From positions 1 through 61,107 of IMG/VR virus record IMGVR_UViG_3300043429_000621: a stretch of DNA of 61,107 nt; one strand, given 5' to 3'. This stretch comes from a virus (taxonomy: Duplodnaviria > Caudoviricetes). Under the pieces are notes generated by a model. It was not told where the DNA came from. It was given only the letters and a program-made list of their open reading frames with translations, and made no database searches. This document shows positions 5,157-42,424 of the stretch, piece after piece (within the stretch, counting starts at the first letter, position 1; the number at the start of each line of letters is the position of its first letter). A program made the translations under genes and the position numbers.

Positions 5157-5848
5157 TAGCGGAAATACCCCCCGATCATCGGCGAGATATAGACGTTCGA
5201 CGTCTCGATGTTCTGGGCGGCGGCGATCTGGTAGCTTTCGTCGGCTTGCGCCTTTAGCGCCACCGCCACCTCCGGCTTCCAGATGCGCGCCAGTCGGTAG
5301 GTCAGGCCGTCGGCAAAGGCCTCCAGCCAGAGATACGGCACTTCGACCTGCGCCGCGCCCGCCAGTGCGGCGTCTTGGATGCGGCGCACCCGATAGTAGC
5401 GGATCGAGGTCAGGGTCTGCCCATCCGGCACCGGCCAGAGCGTGAATTTGGGCGAGATCAGGCGGTCGAACCAGTATACCGTAGGCGCTCCCTGCACCGT
5501 CTTTGTCGAGTACGATGCATATTCGGAGCGCGAGATCGGCATGATGGGCCGGTCGATGGGCGGTGAGGTGCCGTCATCGTAGCGGCCATAGACGTCCAGC
5601 AGGACCACGGTGTTCGCGTCCACCTCGTACTCGGCCTGACCGGCGACCAGTGGCACCTCGACCAGATCGACAGCCCAGAGGTTCACGCCTTGGTTCGACC
5701 AGCGGGACAGCATCATGTTCGACGCCATCCGCGCGGCTTCCATGTGTTCCTGCAGCAGCGCCGTCGGGCGGATGCCGATGTTCATGTAGGCGTAGAGGGT
5801 GATCTCGCCGAGGCTGGGGTTGAAGGTGTAGGTTCCGGTCGTGGCCAT
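5156..5848 (-). CDS. Head-tail adaptor / tail tubular protein A-like
   Basis: ISRSEYASY..K..QGAPTVYWFDR...LWPVPD motif. Confidence 0.65.
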   Translation of the reverse strand: MATTGTYTFNPSLGEITLYAYMNIGIRPTALLQEHMEAARMASNMMLSRWSNQGVNLWAVDLVEVPLVAGQAEYEVDANTVVLLDVYGRYDDGTSPPIDRPIMPISRSEYASYSTKTVQGAPTVYWFDRLISPKFTLWPVPDGQTLTSIRYYRVRRIQDAALAGAAQVEVPYLWLEAFADGLTYRLARIWKPEVAVALKAQADESYQIAAAQNIETSNVYISPMIGGYFR

Positions 5849-32961: not shown

Positions 32962-33552
32962 TCAACCGGCGGAGACGCCGAGCGTTCGCCTGATGACCTC
33001 GATGTCCTTGGCGTAGACAACGTGTGACGCCCTCTCCTGATCCATGGATTGGAACAGCCGCGCCGAGGCGATCTCGCCGGTCTTGTGCTTCCACCACAGC
33101 CAGCTGGAGGCTTGGTTCATCGACATTTCCAGCCGGTCCGCTGCCCGCCTTGCGCTCCACACCCTGTCCTCGTCCAGCAGCGCCCTGATGCGCGCTCCTG
33201 CGTCGCCTTGGGTCACCACCACCGGCAATGCGTACACGACCTCCTGCGGGGCCTCCTGCGTGGCCTGCGCGGGCGCGGCAGCCGCGACCGGCTTGAACCG
33301 CTCCTGCACCTCGACGCGGATCGCGCGCCAGCGGGCGGAATACTTGGCGTAGCCCTCGCCGTCACGGTAGTTGTCGACGCAGTAGGCGAAGAGCATGTCG
33401 CCCACCTCGACCCCGACGGCGTCGACGATCTTGGTGGAGATGAACACCTTCTCGCCGTTCTCGCAGATCGCAAAGGCGGAGCCGCCCTTGGTCGTGCCGT
33501 CCACGGTGCAGATGCGGGTGCTGATGTCGGAGGGTTTGAAGAAGCCAGTCAT
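32962..33552 (-). CDS. Putative nucleic-acid-binding protein (OB-like + winged helix)
   Basis: GSAFA...GEKVFI N-domain and a C-terminal HTH-like segment. Confidence 0.5.
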   Translation of the reverse strand: MTGFFKPSDISTRICTVDGTTKGGSAFAICENGEKVFISTKIVDAVGVEVGDMLFAYCVDNYRDGEGYAKYSARWRAIRVEVQERFKPVAAAAPAQATQEAPQEVVYALPVVVTQGDAGARIRALLDEDRVWSARRAADRLEMSMNQASSWLWWKHKTGEIASARLFQSMDQERASHVVYAKDIEVIRRTLGVSAG

Positions 33553-33560
33553 GATGATCC

Positions 33561-33785
33561 TCAAGGGTTATGGCGTTTCCATGCCAATTCGATCTGCTCC
33601 TCCCGTGAGAGAGGGGCATTGTTCGCTTCCGTACGGATACGGTTCACTTCATCGGCGTACTGCCCCACCATGTACGAAATCAGGTCCAAGTCCTCTGCCT
33701 TGACCCACCAGCGCGGCAGGGGCCTGAAACCGGCCTCCCGCAGCGCCCGCGCGCCCTTGCTCTTCAACTCGGACCCGCCACTCAT
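33561..33785 (-). CDS. Hypothetical protein
   Basis: LREAGFRPLPRWWV; coupled ORF. Confidence 0.6.
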   Translation of the reverse strand: MSGGSELKSKGARALREAGFRPLPRWWVKAEDLDLISYMVGQYADEVNRIRTEANNAPLSREEQIELAWKRHNP

Positions 33786-33925
33786 TTCCGGACCTCGATC
33801 CTGACGACGCCCTTCGTGGTCGGGAACTCGATCTTGGCCGCGCGCAGATCGGCCTCTGCCACCGCCTTGATGATGGTCAAGATATCCCGCGTCTCCTGCA
33901 CCCAGTGCTGCTGCGCTGTGTTCAT
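33782..33925 (-). CDS. Hypothetical protein
   Basis: ATGA-coupled; GAGGAGG RBS. Confidence 0.55.
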   Translation of the reverse strand: MNTAQQHWVQETRDILTIIKAVAEADLRAAKIEFPTTKGVVRIEVRK

Positions 33926-34278
33926 CCCTTCCTCCTCATGACGAGCGCCAGCACCCGCTCTGGGTGGTGACGCAGGTTGATGCTCAGTTGCCGCCGCCCG
34001 ACGCCCAGATCGCGCGCCATGTGCGAGATCGAGGGCCAGTTGTGCGGGCCGACGGCGACCGGCTTGCGGTGGTTTGCCTTGCCGGAGCCAGGCACGATGC
34101 CCTTGCGGGTGCCGCACTTCTCCGCGTGGCCGTGTTTGTGCAGGCTCTGGTAGACCGACTGGCGCTTGATCCCCAGCGCATCTGCCAGCGCCTGCGGGCA
34201 GCGGTAAACGACACCGGCGCGGGACACCCGCAGGCACTGCCGCCCGCTGCAGGCCTTGGTGCAGGCGACCTCGGTCAC
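33922..34278 (-). CDS. Double-HTH (NUMOD1-like) DNA-binding protein
   Basis: GVVYRCPQALADALGI...V and WPSISHMARDLGV...L. Confidence 0.55.
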   Translation of the reverse strand: MTEVACTKACSGRQCLRVSRAGVVYRCPQALADALGIKRQSVYQSLHKHGHAEKCGTRKGIVPGSGKANHRKPVAVGPHNWPSISHMARDLGVGRRQLSINLRHHPERVLALVMRRKG

Positions 34279-34763
34279 TTCAGCTTCTCCTTGGCCGCCT
34301 TCACCCGCGCCCACTGGTCCTTCTTGGCGAGGACGAGCGGGCCGTAGTCGATGATGTCCGAATAGGCGTCGATCAGTTCCTGCATGGCCGCCTCCCGCAC
34401 CCGTGCGGCGTCCGTGGTGGCGGGTTCCAGCGCGGCGCGGTTCTTTGTGACGGCCATTTCCAAAGCCGTGCAGATCAGGTCGCGCCCGATAACCACGCCC
34501 TCGGACGCCTTCATGGAGCGGATCATGTCCAGCGCGGCTTCCATCCCGCGAACGTATGCGGCCTGTTCCCCCACCCCACGCGCAGGGAGCGCGGTGATGG
34601 CGGCGCGTGCAAACTTCGTCCACCTTGCGCGGATGTAGTCGGATTGATCATCGAAGGCTTCCGGCGTCCTTCCGTCAGCGACGGATTGGGGTGTGCCTGC
34701 GTCAACCGCTTCCGCCTTCCACATCGCAGCGGCAACGCGCCGGATCAGGTCATCGTCAGTCAT
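34275..34763 (-). CDS. Hypothetical protein
   Basis: Part of a coupled ORF chain. Confidence 0.55.
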   Translation of the reverse strand: MTDDDLIRRVAAAMWKAEAVDAGTPQSVADGRTPEAFDDQSDYIRARWTKFARAAITALPARGVGEQAAYVRGMEAALDMIRSMKASEGVVIGRDLICTALEMAVTKNRAALEPATTDAARVREAAMQELIDAYSDIIDYGPLVLAKKDQWARVKAAKEKLK

Positions 34764-35007
34764 TGGAGTTCTCCAAAGCAAATGTGTCGATGTCAGGCGG
34801 GGCAGCGCGGCGGTTCCATGCGGCGATGGCTTCGGCGCGGGTGCGGCCTGCGGCTCCGATGCACATGCAGCGGCTGCACCCAATCGCCAGCATCCCGCTG
34901 CTGGATTTGCAGAAGTAGGCGTCGTGGTCTAGGTCGCCGTGGTCGTCCTGTTCCGCCCCGCAGAACGGGCAGGGCAGAAGCGCCTCGGCCTTGTCGATCA
35001 AAGTCAT
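34756..35007 (-). CDS. Lar-family restriction-alleviation-like zinc protein
   Basis: LLPCPFCG...CSRC...AEAIAAWNRRA. Confidence 0.75.
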   Translation of the reverse strand: MTLIDKAEALLPCPFCGAEQDDHGDLDHDAYFCKSSSGMLAIGCSRCMCIGAAGRTRAEAIAAWNRRAAPPDIDTFALENSND

Positions 35008-35261
35008 CTTTCCTCTCCGTCGTCTTGCAGGTCGATCATGTCCAGTTTGATCTTGGCGATTTCCTGCGCTGCGGCCTGCATGAAGGCCCAAAGGCCGTGC
35101 AGGTTGTTCGTGTAAGCGCGGTTGCTGCACTTCGGGCATCGGGCCGTTGCTGCAAGCCCGTTTTCGTCCTCCCGTTGCAGAACGAAAGCGGTGGACGTTT
35201 GCCCGCACGACATGCAGGAAACGAGTGCTTCGACTTTCTTGCGGCGCGGCGCGTCACCCAT
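35004..35261 (-). CDS. Zinc-ribbon hypothetical protein
   Basis: CMSCG and CPKC. Confidence 0.55.
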   Translation of the reverse strand: MGDAPRRKKVEALVSCMSCGQTSTAFVLQREDENGLAATARCPKCSNRAYTNNLHGLWAFMQAAAQEIAKIKLDMIDLQDDGEER

Positions 35262-35688
35262 TGTCGGCCTCCGTGGTGAGGGCGGCGCGGGCAATGTCCT
35301 GCGGCTTCGGCAGGCGATAGTCCGGCATATCGGCGATTTTTTGTAGCACCGCTTCCAGCCGCTCGGTGCGGGCCTCGGCGGCGGTGAGACGGTCTTCCAG
35401 CTTTGCGCCGCTCACGTTCAAAGTGCGATGCCCGCGAAGAAGGCTATCCCGCTCCGCCCGCAGCGCGGCGTTCTGGGCGAGGAGGGCGGTGATCAGGTCG
35501 GCGGCGTCATCCCTGTTCCACAGGCGCAGGCTTTCGATCGCCTCCCCCGCCCGTTCCGCCAGATCGGCGTCGAGGTGCGCGGATAGGGCGGCTAGGACGT
35601 CGCTTTCGTGAAGCAGGCGGTCGCCGTTGACGGGCTGGTATCGTGTCGGAACATCCCGCAGAAGCGCGGCGGCGAGGTCGGTGGTCAT
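35254..35688 (-). CDS. Hypothetical coiled-coil protein
   Basis: ATGA-coupled to the CmoA-like gene. Confidence 0.55.
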   Translation of the reverse strand: MTTDLAAALLRDVPTRYQPVNGDRLLHESDVLAALSAHLDADLAERAGEAIESLRLWNRDDAADLITALLAQNAALRAERDSLLRGHRTLNVSGAKLEDRLTAAEARTERLEAVLQKIADMPDYRLPKPQDIARAALTTEADNG

Positions 35689-36338
35689 GCCTTCACTCCC
35701 ACCTTGCAGGTGAACTGACCGTGCGCCCAGATCGTGCTGACGGTGTCGAAGTTGTTCCGCATGACCTTGGCCAGATCGTACTGGGACATGCGGCGCATCG
35801 ACCCGCGCAGCTGGGCGGATTTGTTCAGCACCTCCTTGTCGTCGAAGTTGCTGCGCTTCCACTCGATCAGGTCGCGCTCGATCACCTCGGCCAGACCGGC
35901 GTCGGCCAGATGTGTCTTCTCGGCGATGATCATCGCGCCGCCGGACACCAGTCCCTCGGCGGCCCGCTCGATCACCTCGACGCGGGCGTTGTAGGGCAGG
36001 AACTGCAGCGTGAAGAGCGACAGGATCACGCTGGTGTTGTTTAGCATGCCGTCCCGCGCCGCCGCCACGATGTCGAGGGTCAGGAAGGTGGTCTGCGATG
36101 CCACCTCGCGCTTCCAGACAGCGCGGTCGAGGCCGACATACTCGACCCCCAGACGCTTCGTCGCGTCGATCAGGAACTTGCCGGTGGAGCAGCCCAGATC
36201 GACCACGGCGGTGCCTTCCTGCGCGAAGGCATAGGTCACCTCATGGCAGAGCCGATACATCTCCTCGACCATGGGGATCGACCGGCGGATGTGATCGTCG
36301 AAGTTGTGGACCTTGGTAAAGTCAAACGAGTTTTTCAT
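35685..36338 (-). CDS. CmoA-like SAM-dependent enzyme (putative carboxy-SAM synthase)
   Basis: Collinear CmoA motifs: FDDHIRRSIP, DLGCSTG, FTLQF, GL..GG..I.AEK, WKR, E...K...L...M. Confidence 0.8.
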   Translation of the reverse strand: MKNSFDFTKVHNFDDHIRRSIPMVEEMYRLCHEVTYAFAQEGTAVVDLGCSTGKFLIDATKRLGVEYVGLDRAVWKREVASQTTFLTLDIVAAARDGMLNNTSVILSLFTLQFLPYNARVEVIERAAEGLVSGGAMIIAEKTHLADAGLAEVIERDLIEWKRSNFDDKEVLNKSAQLRGSMRRMSQYDLAKVMRNNFDTVSTIWAHGQFTCKVGVKA

Positions 36339-37209
36339 GGATCAGGTTTCCAATGTGGGAGACGACCGGCACGGACATGCCGTTGAGCCGGAACTGTTCG
36401 GCGATGGTCAGGCCAAGCCCTTCCAGCCAATCTTCGGGGAAGCCCTGCAGGCGCATCCTCTCGCGCGGCATCACGCGCCGGACGGTTCCGTCTGGGTGGA
36501 TGACGAGGTCGGTGTAGGATTTGTGGTCGCGCTTTGCGAGGGTTCCGCTGACTGCGCTGCCTGCAAAGACGTCAGAGCGGAGGCGAGAGCAATAGGCAAG
36601 GGATTGCCGCTCTCCCGCGATCTCCGCAAGATGGCGCTCACGGCGTTGCTGGAGATCGCGGACCGCGCGGGCGGCTTCGTATCCAGAACGTCTTGCACAG
36701 TCGAATAGATCGGTTCCGGCGGGCATTCCATCGCGGACGGCCACGATGTAAACTCGGCGTCGACGCTGGGGGAGGCCAAAGAACTGGGTGTCGAAGAGCG
36801 TCCAAGCCGCATCATACCCGATGCAGGCCAAGTCGCCGAGGACGCGATGCAGTCCACGGGACCGAAGAGCGAATACGTTTTCCACAATCGCAAATCGGGG
36901 TCGTACTGCATCAATTGCGTCTCGGTAGAAGGTCCAAAGACCTGATTTTTCACCATCAATTCCATTGTTCTTTCCAGCGATGCTGATGTCTTGGCAGGGG
37001 AACCCGCCGGTGAGGATGTCGGCCCCGATCTGGGCCAAGGCGCGGGTGTCGCGGACATCGTCGATCAGCGGAACGTCCGGCCAGTGCTTGGCGATCACCT
37101 TGCGGCTGGCCGGATCGTTCTCGCAGAACGCCACGGTCCGGTAGTGTCCTGTACGTTCAAGGCCGAGGGAGAACCCACCGATGCCGGAGAATAGGTCCAT
37201 GACCCTCAA
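36322..37209 (-). CDS. DNA cytosine-C5 methyltransferase-family enzyme
   Basis: Motifs I DLFSGIGG, IV GGFPCQD, VI ENV, VIII PQRRRRVY, IX ERMRLQGFP and an atypical X (FRLNGMSVPVV); TTG start inferred. Confidence 0.88.
   Translation of the reverse strand: MRVMDLFSGIGGFSLGLERTGHYRTVAFCENDPASRKVIAKHWPDVPLIDDVRDTRALAQIGADILTGGFPCQDISIAGKNNGIDGEKSGLWTFYRDAIDAVRPRFAIVENVFALRSRGLHRVLGDLACIGYDAAWTLFDTQFFGLPQRRRRVYIVAVRDGMPAGTDLFDCARRSGYEAARAVRDLQQRRERHLAEIAGERQSLAYCSRLRSDVFAGSAVSGTLAKRDHKSYTDLVIHPDGTVRRVMPRERMRLQGFPEDWLEGLGLTIAEQFRLNGMSVPVVSHIGNLIHEKLV
36471..36965 (-). CDS. Nested alternative-frame ORF, putative methyltransferase beta-subunit
   Basis: TWPASGMM...STVQDVLD...ISSNAVSAILRRSRESGNPLP..L..AL; purine-rich stretch before the ATG; lies entirely within the MTase gene. 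Confidence 0.55.
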   Translation of the reverse strand: MELMVKNQVFGPSTETQLMQYDPDLRLWKTYSLFGPVDCIASSATWPASGMMRLGRSSTPSSLASPSVDAEFTSWPSAMECPPEPIYSTVQDVLDTKPPARSAISSNAVSAILRRSRESGNPLPIALASALTSLQAAQSAEPSQSATTNPTPTSSSTQTEPSGA

Positions 37210-37412
37210 TTTGCGGGCCTCGGACGGGGCCTGATCGACGACGACGGCAGCGCTGTCTCGTCGCAGATCACGGTGAAGTCGTACGTCATCTGCGCCGTGA
37301 CCGGCTGGATCGACGTCTCGCAGGCCTCCAGCGAGGGATACACCACCCCTGAAGTCGAACCCTCCAGCGGGCCGCTCAGGATGGTTACCCAGAGGACGGT
37401 GAAGTAGGTCAT
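37206..37412 (-). CDS. Small hypothetical protein with a hydrophobic N-terminus
   Basis: AAGGAG RBS; YPSLEAC...C...RPRPRP. Confidence 0.6.
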   Translation of the reverse strand: MTYFTVLWVTILSGPLEGSTSGVVYPSLEACETSIQPVTAQMTYDFTVICDETALPSSSIRPRPRPAN

Positions 37413-37532
37413 GCTTCTCTCCTTCAGTTTGCTCCCACGGAGCCTTGGACACGGAAACCGGCACCTTCGGGAGGTGACCGTCTGCCGAACTGGTGTAGGA
37501 CCGGTTCGGCACAAGGATCGTCTTCTTTGCCA

Positions 37533-38351
37533 TCAGAACCCCCACTTCTGGGCGCAGATCGGGCCGATGCCAGCCTCGATGCTGGTGTGGTTGGTCAGTT
37601 CGCGCCCGCAGCAGGAGCAGGTGCCGGTGCGCTGGCCGTAGCGGATCGCCGCACCCTTGGGATCGGCAGCGATGGCCTGCAGGCGGGCCAGCGTGTCGGC
37701 GCGGGCCTCGCGCACAGCCTTGAAGGTCACGGCCTCGATCTTGCCCTGATAGGCGTCATCCTCGATCTCGACGACGTAGAGGCAGCCCGCGTTGCGGCCC
37801 ATGGGCGAGGCGAGGCTGATCTTCAGCCCCTCGGCGCGGTAGCAGGGCTTCTTGTAGCCGGACGCCACGGCGGTATCGAACATCTCGCGGATGCGGTCGA
37901 GGTTCACGTACGCGCTCCGCGCCGCGATGGCGGCTTGGCGCTTCTCCCAGCCGCGCTGCCATGCGCCAATCTGGTTGGCGGTCAGCTGGCCGCGCGTGGT
38001 CAGCTGGTGATACAGGGACGCCGTGAACTCAGTCTTCTGGTTCACCAAATCGGCCCACATCTCTGGGTAGTTCTCGGCGAACTCCTTCACCATGCGGCGG
38101 ACGCGCTGCTCCTCCTCGGCCCGCTTGGCCTGCACGGCGGCGCGGCGCTTGGCGCGGAATTCCGGCGAGGTGGTAAAGTAGCCGCGACCGCCGCAGGCGA
38201 GGCAGTAGCTGTTGCCGTGGCGGTTGGTGCCGCCCGACCACTTGCCCGTGCCGCCGCACTGACCGCAGGGAAAGCGCTGTTCGACCTTCTGGGCGCGGTG
38301 ACCTTCGATCTCGGTGGGCAGGCCGTTGATGAAGTCGTCGAAGTCGGACAT
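37533..38351 (-). CDS. DUF6011-domain zinc-finger protein
   Basis: Two CxxCxGxG motifs; C-terminal CSCCGRELT...SIEAGIGPICA. Confidence 0.75.
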   Translation of the reverse strand: MSDFDDFINGLPTEIEGHRAQKVEQRFPCGQCGGTGKWSGGTNRHGNSYCLACGGRGYFTTSPEFRAKRRAAVQAKRAEEEQRVRRMVKEFAENYPEMWADLVNQKTEFTASLYHQLTTRGQLTANQIGAWQRGWEKRQAAIAARSAYVNLDRIREMFDTAVASGYKKPCYRAEGLKISLASPMGRNAGCLYVVEIEDDAYQGKIEAVTFKAVREARADTLARLQAIAADPKGAAIRYGQRTGTCSCCGRELTNHTSIEAGIGPICAQKWGF

Positions 38352-38407
38352 CTGGATCACTCCAAGAAACATGATGTGGATATACCTACACCCACGTTGT
38401 TGGTTCG

Positions 38408-40699
38408 TCAATCCCCGCCGACAAACCTGTATCGTACGATGGACTTCTTGTTGTAGGGGTGGACGCTCTCCTCGGTGACGATCTCGCCGCGCGCGACCAT
38501 CTTGCTCAGGCAGGTCTCGATGTCCTCCTTCTTGAACTTCCGCAGCCGGTTGACGATCACGCCCAAGGTCTCGCCGGTTTCGCCGCCGGTGATCAGGGAC
38601 AGGCGCATCTTCAAGGCCAATGCGGGCGCGTCGGCCTCGCGGTCGTTGGCGGTGACGAGGCGCATCTTGGTGTCAAGGTCGTGCCGGACCAGTGCGAAAG
38701 CGTAGCGCACATGCTCCACGGTGCGGATGCCCTCCGGCACGGCAAGGATCAGGCTCAGTTTGCTGACCAGTTCGTAGCCCCGCATCATCAGGGCTTCTAG
38801 ACCGCTCTGTTCCTTGTGTTCCTGCGCCATGCGGTCGAAGTACTGGATGATGCTGTCCAGCAAGCCAGCGGCCACCGTCTCGGTCGGGATCACGATGCGG
38901 TCGCCGTAATATTCGACCCGCGCGTTCGGCGGCACGGTCATGTCGAAACTGCCCGCCATGGCGATCTGCTGCAGCGCGATCTTGAGGTCTTCGGGCAGGT
39001 TGGGCCGGATGTGGCGGGGCCGCGTCGGCGGGGCGGTGTCCGGCTCGATGCAGAGAATGGAACGCCCGATGAAGCCGTTGGCCGCCGCCTCGTAGTCCAC
39101 CAGTTCATCGAAGTTCTTGCCGGTGGTGAAGCCGATCAGGGAGAGGAGCGGGCGGTCGAGGCCCTGATCGAGGGTCTGGAGCATGTGGACGATGGCGTCC
39201 TGCCGGTTCAAGAGGAAGGGCTTCTGGCCGACATCCTCGATCTGCTTCTCGATCTTGGCCAGATCGCGCTGCAGTTCGCGCTTGATGTCTTCCCGCATGT
39301 CGCCGGAGATCGGCAGACGGCCATCGGCCTTTGAATAGGCCGACATCAGCAGCCCGACGATGCCCTCCATGTAGACCGCGCCGCCGCGCTTCTGGGCCGA
39401 CTTGATCTTCTGCAGTAGGAAGCCGATTTCGTCGACCAGATAGAAGGCGGCTTGGTTCCGCGTCAGGTTGCGCGTGATCTCCTGCTCGGACTTGATGGTG
39501 CCGTGGGTGGCGGGGGCGAGGCCGCAGGCGACATGGACCTCGATGATCGACTGGACGATGGCCTCTTTGCCGGTGCCGGACCCCGCGACGTTGAAGACGA
39601 AGAGGTTGGTGGTGGCGCGGTCAAGGTCGTCGGTGTAGCGCAGACCGGCGACATTCCCCATGGTGTAGATCGCGGCCATGGCGGCGAGGTGTTCGCGCGG
39701 GCGGCGGCCCCGCTGATTGATCCACTCCGCCAGCTTGCCGGTCAGCCCAGGTGGTCGCAGCAGGTCGACCCCGCGCACATCCAGCAGATCGACCGTCTTT
39801 TCCTCGACCACGGGGAAGTCGAACTCGACGTCTGGCCGGAACGTCACCGGCTGCTTCCAGCCGCCCTGCTCGGCGTAATGGACGAGGGTGCCGAGGGTCA
39901 CAGGGTTGGCGGACTTGCCGAAGCTGTGCCACTTCCGCGCCATCTCCTCGGCCTTGTACTTCGCCGACTGCTGTGACCATGCGTCCCAGACGTCCAGCGC
40001 GGTGCCACCAGAGGCGTGGTGCAGCGCCATGCCGACCCGCACCCATGTCTCGTAATCATCGACGTCCGCAACATGGCGCACCATGTCCTGCAGGTCGTCA
40101 TGGCTGACATCGACCGTCTGGCCGCCCAGTTCGGCACGGTGTCGCTCCGGCTTCTTCAGCTTGGCCAGCAACGCCTCCGGCGCATCCTCGATGTCGTCGG
40201 GAGTGCCGACCACGACCTCGTAGCGCTTTCCGCTGGCATGCAGGCTGCCCGCGCCCACGACGTAAGCCGCGCCAGACTTGAAGTCGATGCCGGGGTATTC
40301 CGACAGCTTCACGCAGAGCGCGAGGCCTTCCGGCACCCTGAAGAAATAGTGCCGTGACCCGCCGCCGGAGCCGGTGTTCACGATCAGACCAGCCCCAGCA
40401 ATCGCGGGGATGTCTTCCAGAAGCTTCTGCAGGCTGGCAAGGCCACCGTTGCGGGCGTCGATGTCCACCACAAGCAGGCCGCGCAGCAGGACGCCGTAGC
40501 CGGTGTCGAACTGGCCCATCTGCTCCATCGTCTCCAGCTGCTCCTCCGACCAGTGCGGGGTGTGCTGCCAGTTGGAGACCAGCGGGTGCTTCAGCACCGC
40601 CTTGCAGGTCGGGTCGCCGCAGGCGCAGTGACCGTCAGGGGTAGCGCCATGGAGACCGAAGACGAGATGTCCGGCCCCCCAGAAGGAGCGATGTGTCAT
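38408..40699 (-). CDS. Primase-polymerase with PriCT-2 and helicase-like (DUF3987-like) domains
   Basis: VVDIDARNGG, TGSGG..RHY, DYETWVRVGMALH, W..WS..S.KY, AGSGTGKE, LVDEIG. Confidence 0.85.
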   Translation of the reverse strand: MTHRSFWGAGHLVFGLHGATPDGHCACGDPTCKAVLKHPLVSNWQHTPHWSEEQLETMEQMGQFDTGYGVLLRGLLVVDIDARNGGLASLQKLLEDIPAIAGAGLIVNTGSGGGSRHYFFRVPEGLALCVKLSEYPGIDFKSGAAYVVGAGSLHASGKRYEVVVGTPDDIEDAPEALLAKLKKPERHRAELGGQTVDVSHDDLQDMVRHVADVDDYETWVRVGMALHHASGGTALDVWDAWSQQSAKYKAEEMARKWHSFGKSANPVTLGTLVHYAEQGGWKQPVTFRPDVEFDFPVVEEKTVDLLDVRGVDLLRPPGLTGKLAEWINQRGRRPREHLAAMAAIYTMGNVAGLRYTDDLDRATTNLFVFNVAGSGTGKEAIVQSIIEVHVACGLAPATHGTIKSEQEITRNLTRNQAAFYLVDEIGFLLQKIKSAQKRGGAVYMEGIVGLLMSAYSKADGRLPISGDMREDIKRELQRDLAKIEKQIEDVGQKPFLLNRQDAIVHMLQTLDQGLDRPLLSLIGFTTGKNFDELVDYEAAANGFIGRSILCIEPDTAPPTRPRHIRPNLPEDLKIALQQIAMAGSFDMTVPPNARVEYYGDRIVIPTETVAAGLLDSIIQYFDRMAQEHKEQSGLEALMMRGYELVSKLSLILAVPEGIRTVEHVRYAFALVRHDLDTKMRLVTANDREADAPALALKMRLSLITGGETGETLGVIVNRLRKFKKEDIETCLSKMVARGEIVTEESVHPYNKKSIVRYRFVGGD

Positions 40700-40707
40700 G
40701 ATGATGT

Positions 40708-40932
40708 TCAGCCGAACAGGTAGTTGCCAAGCTTCTCGATGGTCGTCAGGGTAGGCGTCTCGCCGCGCCCCTTGGCGATGTTTCGTACCGTGTTTTCGTG
40801 CAGGCCCGTGGCCGCTGCCACCTTGGACAGGTTGCGGTCGTCCAGCGCCATCCGGATGCGGACAAGCTGCTCGTCGATGGTCGCCTTGATGACGTCAGCG
40901 GGTTTCTCCTGCTTTTCGGGGGTGTCCGACAT
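40708..40932 (-). CDS. HTH (Cro/XRE-like) transcriptional regulator
   Basis: NLSKVAAATGLHENTVRNIAKG...PTLTTIEKL. Confidence 0.8.
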   Translation of the reverse strand: MSDTPEKQEKPADVIKATIDEQLVRIRMALDDRNLSKVAAATGLHENTVRNIAKGRGETPTLTTIEKLGNYLFG

Positions 40933-40963
40933 TGTTGTTGTCTCCTGTGTCACAAAATGCGTG

Positions 40964-40996
40964 TTGACATTCGCACAGTGCGCCGCGTAACGTCAA
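40964..40996. promoter_or_regulatory. Divergent promoter region between the HTH/primase and recombination operons
   Basis: Plus TTGACA-18-TAACGT; minus TTGACG facing the HTH gene. Confidence 0.5.
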
Positions 40997-41024
40997 CCCG
41001 TTGAGCGAAGAGAAAGGAGCGAGA

Positions 41025-41809: not shown

Positions 41810-42424
41810 ATGTCCTTCTGGAACCTCTCTGACGGCGAAGACGTCAAGTCCAACACCACCGGCGAATTCGATCAGGGCGGCGGTCGCATGGAAGTCATCC
41901 CCGACAATACGTCGGTGCTGGCGGCCATCGACGAGGCCAAGTGGGATCGTACGCAGGATCAGGACCGGTTCATCTCCCTGCGCTGGACCGTCCTCGCGCC
42001 GGAAGAGTTCAAGAACCGGAAAATCTTCCAGAAGGTCTGGGTGCTGGACCCCAAGCCCAACACCAAGCCGGAGAAGGTCGATCAGGTCCGCGACAAGGCC
42101 AAGCGCATGCTGGCGGCCATCGACATGAACGCGGGCGGCAAGCTGCTGGCCAAGGGCGAGATGCCCACGGACGAGAGCCTGACGGCCTGCCTCACCAACA
42201 AGCCCATGGTCATCAAGGTCATGGTCTGGGAAATGCCGGATCGCCAGAACGGCGGCACGGCGCAGGGCAACTGGGTTGGCGCGGTGTCGCCGAAATCCTC
42301 GCCTGTCTCCTCGCAGGAGGAGATCGAGAAGAATGCCGCAGCCATGGCCAAGCGGCCTCCGGCGACCGGCGGCGGGATGGGCGGCGGTCGGCGTGTTGAT
42401 GATGACGACGCCATTCCATTCTAA
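41810..42424 (+). CDS. Single-stranded DNA-binding protein (DUF669-like)
   Basis: Gly-rich linker and acidic DDDDAIPF tail; adjacent to Sak4. Confidence 0.8.
   Translation: MSFWNLSDGEDVKSNTTGEFDQGGGRMEVIPDNTSVLAAIDEAKWDRTQDQDRFISLRWTVLAPEEFKNRKIFQKVWVLDPKPNTKPEKVDQVRDKAKRMLAAIDMNAGGKLLAKGEMPTDESLTACLTNKPMVIKVMVWEMPDRQNGGTAQGNWVGAVSPKSSPVSSQEEIEKNAAAMAKRPPATGGGMGGGRRVDDDDAIPF

Follow-up and report, generated by a model that had tools for sequence, protein, structure and literature searches.

Can a phage make carboxy-S-adenosylmethionine (carboxy-SAM) for itself and use it to mark its own DNA? The question is raised by IMG/VR record IMGVR_UViG_3300043429_000621, a complete virus of 61,107 bp with direct terminal repeats and ~63% G+C (analysed at its full length and referred to as the window below), in which the gene for a C5-cytosine DNA methyltransferase overlaps that for a CmoA-like, putative carboxy-SAM synthase. 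An earlier note on this DNA had proposed a self-made cofactor that serves to place an anionic mark on phage DNA. The coupling behind that proposal is strongly supported by the present analysis, and the mechanism was shown in the experiments that PMC12783734 describes for Synechococcus phage S-B43; the idea is thus sound, but no longer new. What is new here is a lineage of methyltransferases with an unusual motif X, to which the window enzyme belongs.

In the S-B43 system (PMC12783734; Nat Commun, December 2025), a phage CmoA makes carboxy-SAM, from which CmoX (PDB 8YF3), a C5-methyltransferase homologue, writes 5-carboxymethylcytosine (5cxmC), and the ligase CmoY then adds glycine. According to the same paper, Arg350 of CmoX replaces Asn304 of HhaI and contacts the carboxymethyl group, the S-B43 enzyme (SpCmoX) is strictly specific for carboxy-SAM, and E. 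coli CmoA supplied this cofactor in vivo. The accompanying survey retained proteins with an SPPC motif and Arg350, arriving at 5,615 CmoX and 4,257 CmoA. Throughout, we refer to methyltransferases with motif X [N/C/S]-G-M as GM-type, to those with Arg at the key position (that of CmoX Arg350) as Arg-type, and to those reading G-N-[AS]-V as canonical.

The overlapping genes and motif X of the methyltransferase

The methyltransferase (PF00145, E 9e-48; TIGR00675, E 8e-44) starts at a TTG (37209; alternative ATG at 37200) and ends with a TGA (36324–36322) inside the CmoA-like gene, the two genes overlapping by 17 nucleotides (nt; Table 1). For the downstream product, the best NCBIfam match was TIGR00740 (CmoA; E 4.3e-20), with residues 5–215 covering positions 17–238 of the 239 in the profile, so that the protein is collinear with CmoA, just as had been noted before. 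Further matches comprised phrog_4752 (E 1.2e-37) and the PDB entry of CmoA, 4gek (E 1.9e-15). Identity to the validated S-B43 CmoA (SpCmoA) amounted to 29% (BLASTP E 9e-31, residues 4–216 of 217), which equals the identity between S-B43 CmoA and E. coli CmoA; to the latter (YecO; 4GEK/4IWN), an enzyme of the tRNA 5-carboxymethoxyuridine (cmo5U) pathway, the window protein is 26% identical. Its AlphaFold2 model (predicted local distance difference test, pLDDT, 92) contains the full-length CmoA fold, i.e. a Rossmann core plus C-terminal helices, and aligned best with E. coli CmoA (4gek; Z 27.4, root-mean-square deviation (rmsd) 1.8 Å over 211 of 217 residues) and 1im8 (Z 27.1), followed by other small-molecule methyltransferases such as MM_2633 (Z 25.0) and CysG/BelI (Z 24.9). 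In a 16-sequence alignment (A2), all family invariants—DxGCSxG, FTLQF, the following Arg, EK and two Lys—were retained, those of the DLGCSTG motif being present in E. coli CmoA and S-B43 CmoA as well. Besides fold and whole-length collinearity, the window protein thus has DxGCSxG, FTLQF, EK and Lys198 in common with E. coli CmoA, from which it differs in its low identity, a profile score below the cut-off and Ser174 in place of Arg199. Together, sequence and model point to a putative carboxy-SAM synthase.

In contrast to E. coli CmoA, this protein has no CmoB partner or tRNA beside it. In line with the earlier note, the entire 61,107-bp record contained no tRNA gene and gave no CmoB match at E ≤ 1. 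Likewise, neither SpCmoY nor PF00733, the family of asparagine-synthetase-like ligases, had a match at E ≤ 1 in the complete record, the PF00733 search being positive in 14 of 14 control genomes. A second C5-methyltransferase was not found in the genome, leaving that at 36322–37209 as the sole one.

The AlphaFold2 model of the methyltransferase (pLDDT 80.1) had M.HhaI as its best solved-structure match in VIA-align (Z 27.2, rmsd 2.6, 248 aligned) and also aligned with CmoX (8yf3; Z 22.7, rmsd 2.5, 226 aligned). With M.HhaI it shares motifs I, IV (PC, including catalytic Cys72), VI (ENV, 110–112) and VIII (QRRRR, 148–152), as well as an Asn at the position of HhaI Asn304. The features that make CmoX a C5-methyltransferase, namely the fold, the catalytic Cys, ENV and QxRxR, are all present. 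The SPPC form of motif IV is not: the window enzyme has GFPC instead.

Motif X reads EQFRLNGMSVPVV, the atypical form that the earlier note gave, and thereby departs (L-N-G-M-S instead of G-N-[AS]-V) from canonical C5-methyltransferases and from the engineered enzymes M.MpeI N374K and M.MedI N377K. Which of its residues occupies the key position was read from two alignments. From the key residue onwards, canonical motifs run N-A-V-V-P-Q-I-P-E-L-I-G, the SPPC type R-M-V-P-P-L-M-M-K-A-I-A, the Arg types R-A-M-S-I-N-V-M-E-W-L-G or R-T-I-T-I-P-V-V-E-A-I-G, and the GM type N-G-M-S-V-P-V-V-S-H-I-G, which resembles the Arg-type partners of CmoA column by column save for the key residue itself. This register places Asn276 at the key column, thereby confirming that the Asn of motif X is kept. 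The VIA-align ranges agree: residues 1–295 of the model lie on HhaI 12–323 and 8yf3 19–369 and, with offsets of 28 and 74, Asn276 maps to HhaI Asn304 and CmoX Arg350, assuming a gapless alignment of the last helix. Two other assignments were set aside, namely Met278, from a gapless reading against SpCmoX that is overruled by the Arg-type register and the VIA-align ranges, and Gly277, from an hhalign register in a gapped stretch of low confidence. Under none of the three registers does an Arg or Lys fall on the Arg350 position.

Across a 26-sequence family alignment, Gly277 and Met278 were invariant and Asn276 was conserved at 90% or more; the form [N]-G-M-[ST] was common to all of the top 120 database relatives. 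Among 63 CmoA-linked GM-type members, the key position is occupied by Cys in 8 and by Ser in 3, neither of which is usual in canonical forms of this motif. The Arg two residues upstream of Asn276, to which the earlier note drew attention, is present in the window enzyme (Arg274) and not conserved: linked relatives read FEWNGM, FTCNGM, YSCNGM or FMYNGM, for which reason we discarded it as a general substitute ligand for the carboxylate.

With Asn276 instead of Arg350 and GFPC instead of SPPC, the window methyltransferase falls outside the published definition of CmoX on both counts. Judged by sequence, it therefore does not count as CmoX as defined in PMC12783734, and represents a separate, apparently phage-restricted lineage with motif X [N/C/S]-G-M. 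What the two systems have in common is a phage CmoA homologue adjoining a C5-methyltransferase homologue without CmoB, the methyltransferase fold, and a neighbourhood of DNA replication or modification genes. They differ in that the window enzyme is only ~25% identical to SpCmoX, and this in the N-terminal half only, in the absence of a CmoY/asparagine-synthetase-like ligase from the window genome, and in gene order (methyltransferase then CmoA, overlapping, vs. CmoA, CmoY, CmoX in S-B43). In a literature search for natural arginine-less carboxymethyltransferases, nothing was found beyond the S-B43 paper and reports on enzyme engineering.

Linkage of GM-type methyltransferases to CmoA-like genes

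Gene neighbourhoods were surveyed from both partners; counts from these large scans are samples, not a census, and hold among the matches listed. As a single-sequence query with the CmoA-like protein found no close relatives in IMG/VR, an alignment query (A1) was needed, and the best 80 of its 259 relatives were examined. A methyltransferase open reading frame (ORF) adjoined the CmoA-like gene in 73 of these 80 loci, with a median distance of 25 nt between ORF bounds, and in the other seven the gene lay within 1.3 kb of a contig end. The 73 methyltransferases comprised 67 of the Arg type, five of the GM type, one truncated ORF and no canonical G-N-[AS]-V form. Motif IV of the 67 Arg-type enzymes read GTPC (45), GFPC (13) or SPPC (7) and was unmatched in two; those with GTPC or GFPC, the majority, would likewise be lost under the strict SPPC criterion that PMC12783734 describes. 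SpCmoY-like ligases were encoded in only 12 of 321 fetched loci (ORF set L005–L244, L248, L250–L329), all of them Arg-type.

Scans seeded with the methyltransferase gave a concordant picture. A pattern from its N-terminal part retrieved 80 loci, including two full-length GM-type genes, both with a CmoA-like gene directly downstream, and none of the remaining 78 loci had a CmoA-like ORF. With a C-terminal pattern, all 29 full-length GM-type loci listed from IMG/VR had an adjacent CmoA-like ORF (one truncated), vs. 0 of 51 loci with a different type of motif X. At least 67 more GM-type genes came from scans of metagenomes and species genomes, 57 of them being CmoA-linked, two unlinked and eight uninformative. 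After deduplication, 63 of 65 informative GM-type sequences were linked to a CmoA-like gene, so that the co-occurrence survey proposed in the earlier note revealed a near-obligate association. That this pairing is found on dozens of contigs unrelated to one another shows that it is not a matter of chance. Among 185,579 prokaryotic species genomes (one genome per species), the matches listed included a single true relative of the GM type, which argues for a phage-restricted family rather than host restriction–modification or prophage genes. Both its tie to a CmoA-like gene and this near-absence from prokaryotic species genomes set the GM-type family apart from canonical C5-methyltransferases. 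The single relative, matching in the C-terminal domain, sits on a 3.8-kb contig of a metagenome-assembled genome and is likewise accompanied by a CmoA-like ORF.

Four named Vibrio phage records encode GM-type methyltransferases with 49–53% identity to the window enzyme. Some GM-type enzymes, those of the Vibrio phages and of the two unlinked metagenome loci among them, occur in a longer form of ~345–363 residues, with ~70 extra residues at the C-terminus; the loci in question are L245–L247 (Vibrio phages 1.233.A, 1.052.A and S4-7), L271, L273, L274, L285 and L286. When genes were grouped by tail, CmoA linkage was found for one of six with the long and 85 of 90 with the short tail. Motif X of the Vibrio phage long form, F-T-C-N-G-M, is identical to that of some CmoA-linked members.

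In a FastTree phylogeny of 115 CmoA-like proteins, those partnered with GM-type enzymes fell into several clades and were interleaved with Arg-partnered ones. The window protein belongs to a GM-only clade of 16 (support 99) nested within a clade of 68 (support 98) that includes 33 Arg-partnered rows. Such interleaving suggests that the partners make the same product. No fused methyltransferase–CmoA protein was found among longer proteins, which is weak evidence, and a complex prediction for the two window proteins scored 0.00 without controls and counts neither way.

What the pair may write on phage DNA

The strength of this coupling and its specificity for two non-canonical classes of motif X lead us to favour, at slightly better than an even chance, an arginine-independent carboxymethyltransferase that would be supplied with carboxy-SAM by a synthase of its own. 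While the gene pair, the two folds, the residue at the key position and the near-obligate linkage are shown here, what either enzyme does and which base results are inferred. The CmoA-like enzyme would convert SAM and prephenate to carboxy-SAM, and the translationally coupled methyltransferase, with Cys72 as the nucleophile, would transfer the carboxymethyl group onto C5 of cytosines in phage DNA. The resulting 5cxmC may shield the DNA from host nucleases and, given that no amide ligase is encoded, would stay 5cxmC. GM-type enzymes would then have to bind the cofactor carboxylate without an Arg, perhaps through Asn276, through backbone amides exposed by Gly277, or through basic residues of the recognition domain.

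Several observations weigh against this scenario. On the side of the methyltransferase, the register with Arg-type partners puts an Asn at the key column, CmoA-linked GM-type members show no conserved basic residue in place of the Arg, and the position two residues before the key residue is basic (Arg or Lys) in only 40 of 63 of these. The R350N variant of SpCmoX accepts neither cofactor in the assays of PMC12783734, and wild-type M.MedI, an Asn enzyme, is reported to use carboxy-SAM poorly (kcat/KM 0.04 vs. 14.52 for N377K; PMC12015181). None of three Vibrio phage records searched by profile contained a CmoA-like gene, nor did two metagenome loci (L274, L285) in which the methyltransferase gene is flanked by 700 nt or more on either side. 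As for the CmoA-like protein, it misses the TIGR00740 cut-off (72.4 vs. 193.3 bits), as it does that of NF011995 (55.6 vs. 285 bits), and aligns Ser174 with Arg199 of E. coli CmoA; the tree of CmoA-like proteins, finally, was built by a quick method (FastTree) and has long branches. One idea that might reconcile the long-form phages with carboxymethyl transfer is that their hosts supply carboxy-SAM, by analogy with E. coli and SpCmoX.

An alternative that we consider unlikely is that the methyltransferase is an ordinary SAM-dependent enzyme making 5-methylcytosine (5mC), with another role for the CmoA-like protein, for instance draining host SAM into carboxy-SAM against SAM-dependent defences or providing carboxy-SAM for a different acceptor. 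It is kept alive by the published mutational data on the cofactor-discriminating position, where an Asn such as Asn276 is described as disfavouring carboxy-SAM (PMC12783734, PMC12015181), and SAM depletion is raised as a possible role of CmoA in the Discussion of PMC12783734. It would also fit with the N-terminal catalytic half of the window enzyme, in which we found no distinguishing features: this half matches canonical phage methyltransferases, including the R-G that follows ENV, and is 50–62% identical to CmoA-less phage enzymes with a canonical Q-L-G-N-A-V motif; the same type of methyltransferase, moreover, exists without CmoA in Vibrio phages. What plain 5mC formation leaves unexplained, however, is why CmoA-like genes stood beside Arg- and GM-type enzymes only (canonical: 0/73, 0/51 and 0/78 among the matches listed), why 63 of 65 GM-type genes among the matches listed have kept an overlapping CmoA-like gene, and why 11 of 63 linked members have a Cys or Ser that is atypical of canonical motif X at the key position; in addition, a SAM-draining enzyme would starve the SAM-dependent methyltransferase translated together with it. 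Between these two extremes lies an enzyme accepting both cofactors and leaving a mixture of 5mC and 5cxmC, in a ratio set by the supply of carboxy-SAM from its partner or from host CmoA. The CmoA-less long form in Vibrio phages could be accommodated in this way, with carboxy-SAM coming from the host, a role that E. coli CmoA played for SpCmoX. Some activity with either cofactor has been reported for engineered enzymes and even for wild-type ones with Asn (PMC12015181). Given the strict carboxy-SAM specificity reported for SpCmoX (PMC12783734), we regard this as very unlikely.

Slightly less probable still is that the CmoA-like protein is no carboxy-SAM synthase at all, being instead a plain methyltransferase or the maker of a different SAM derivative. 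Its sub-threshold TIGR00740 score would be in line with this, as would its structural neighbours MM_2633 and CysG/BelI, which rank just ~2.5 Z units under CmoA, and the absence of Arg199, a residue that salt-bridges the carboxylate in the crystal structure of E. coli CmoA (PMC3663124). That the catalytic Arg region is a variant had been a caveat of the earlier note; it holds insofar as Arg199 is replaced by Ser174, but it loses force because the experimentally active S-B43 CmoA has a Glu in the same column. Arg199 is hence not universal for activity, and its loss not disqualifying. Against a non-synthase also stand the equal 29% distances separating the window protein from S-B43 CmoA and the latter from E. 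coli CmoA, the retention of all family invariants, and a top fold match that is CmoA itself over nearly the entire chain.

An overlapping frame, the genomic surroundings and implications

Nested in the methyltransferase gene, a long ORF in the +1 frame is a candidate for an overlapping gene or for the product of a programmed frameshift; it could belong to the module or be separate from it. ORF clustering recovered its family from all 30 non-redundant GM-type loci that were clustered (e.g. L171:3510–4055). The +1 frame is free of stops over 119–197 codons in 31 of 31 genes, including genes of 33–40% G+C in which the +2 frame reaches 18–46. Shuffling of synonymous codons attained the observed open run in no more than 4 of 1000 trials for 11 of 18 genes; for the high-GC window gene it did so in 267 of 1000, an uninformative result. 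Pairwise similarity in the +1 frame exceeded that of 200/200 shuffles in six of six pairs, and the product contains the conserved blocks T-x-P-x-S-G-x-M-R-L, E-S-P-x-x-P and L-P-x-x-L. It matches P0168 (E 4e-13), a phage methyltransferase-like protein with the domain in frame, and P0270 carries this domain within one reading frame with C5-methyltransferase motifs IX and X; the L171 copy matched phrog_1008 (E 1.2e-7). A further database protein, P0171 (213 residues), joins a GM-type frame-0 N-terminus (PF00145 positions 1–96) directly to the +1-frame sequence, which may reflect either natural frameshifting or an error in sequencing.

Table 1. Features of the methyltransferase/CmoA-like locus (window coordinates)
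Feature	Position	Strand	Basis or remark
C5-cytosine DNA methyltransferase, GM-type (P0002), 295 aa	36322..37209	-	PF00145 + TIGR00675
Motif IV G-F-P-C-Q, catalytic Cys72	36991..37005	-	Sequence; reads on as G-F-P-C-Q-D-I-S
Motif X F-R-L-N-G-M-S-V-P	36367..36393	-	Asn276 codon 36382-36384, at CmoX Arg350 / HhaI Asn304 position
195-codon +1-frame ORF, candidate overlapping gene	36471..37058	-	Inside methyltransferase gene
Overlap of methyltransferase stop and CmoA-like start, 17 nt, translational coupling	36322..36338	-	Read from sequence
CmoA-like putative carboxy-SAM synthase (P0001), 217 aa, ATG 36338-36336	35685..36338	-	TIGR00740
SAM-binding motif D-L-G-C-S-T-G, CmoA-like protein	36180..36200	-	Invariant in alignment A1: D47, G49, C50, S51, T52, G53
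F-T-L-Q-F motif, CmoA family	36000..36014	-	Invariant, 16/16 sequences of A2 incl. E. coli CmoA and S-B43 CmoA

The pair sits within the phage replication module: upstream of the methyltransferase lie genes for a primase (38408–40699), a phrog_4046 protein and a single-strand-binding protein (41810–42424). The gap separating the methyltransferase gene from that of the phrog_4046 protein is filled by a small ORF without a PHROG match (37206–37409, minus strand; 67 residues from an internal ATG), which ends 4 nt inside the methyltransferase start; it could be a genuine small gene or have arisen by chance in DNA of high G+C content. Downstream, an ORF for a 144-residue coiled-coil protein (35254–35688), likewise devoid of a PHROG match, starts in an ATGA overlap with the stop of the CmoA-like gene. 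The stretch 35252–35684 is the sole part of 33000–41000 with nucleotide matches in the phage collection, showing 78–81% identity to two 'Microcystis phage' records and a 60-nt match of 100% to a 'Nostoc phage' record.

To our knowledge, 5cxmC counted as an unnatural base before December 2025; its known natural writers are all defined by a single arginine. It is possible, at a chance that we put a little short of even, that GM-type enzymes constitute a second, independently evolved natural lineage of DNA cytosine carboxymethyltransferases without an Arg or Lys in motif X, perhaps with the +1-frame protein as an accessory. If carboxy-SAM is indeed recognized without an Arg, a filter built on Arg350 and SPPC would miss a whole phage-restricted branch of 5cxmC writers, and residue-based database filters would under-count such systems. 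The known spread of the 5cxmC mark in phages would then widen, and a second structural solution for carboxy-SAM binding would be at hand that may be useful to the engineering of carboxymethyltransferases for sequencing methods. Should the product be plain 5mC instead, carboxy-SAM synthesis during infection would seem to serve another, as yet unexplained purpose, as indicated by the near-obligate presence of the CmoA-like partner.

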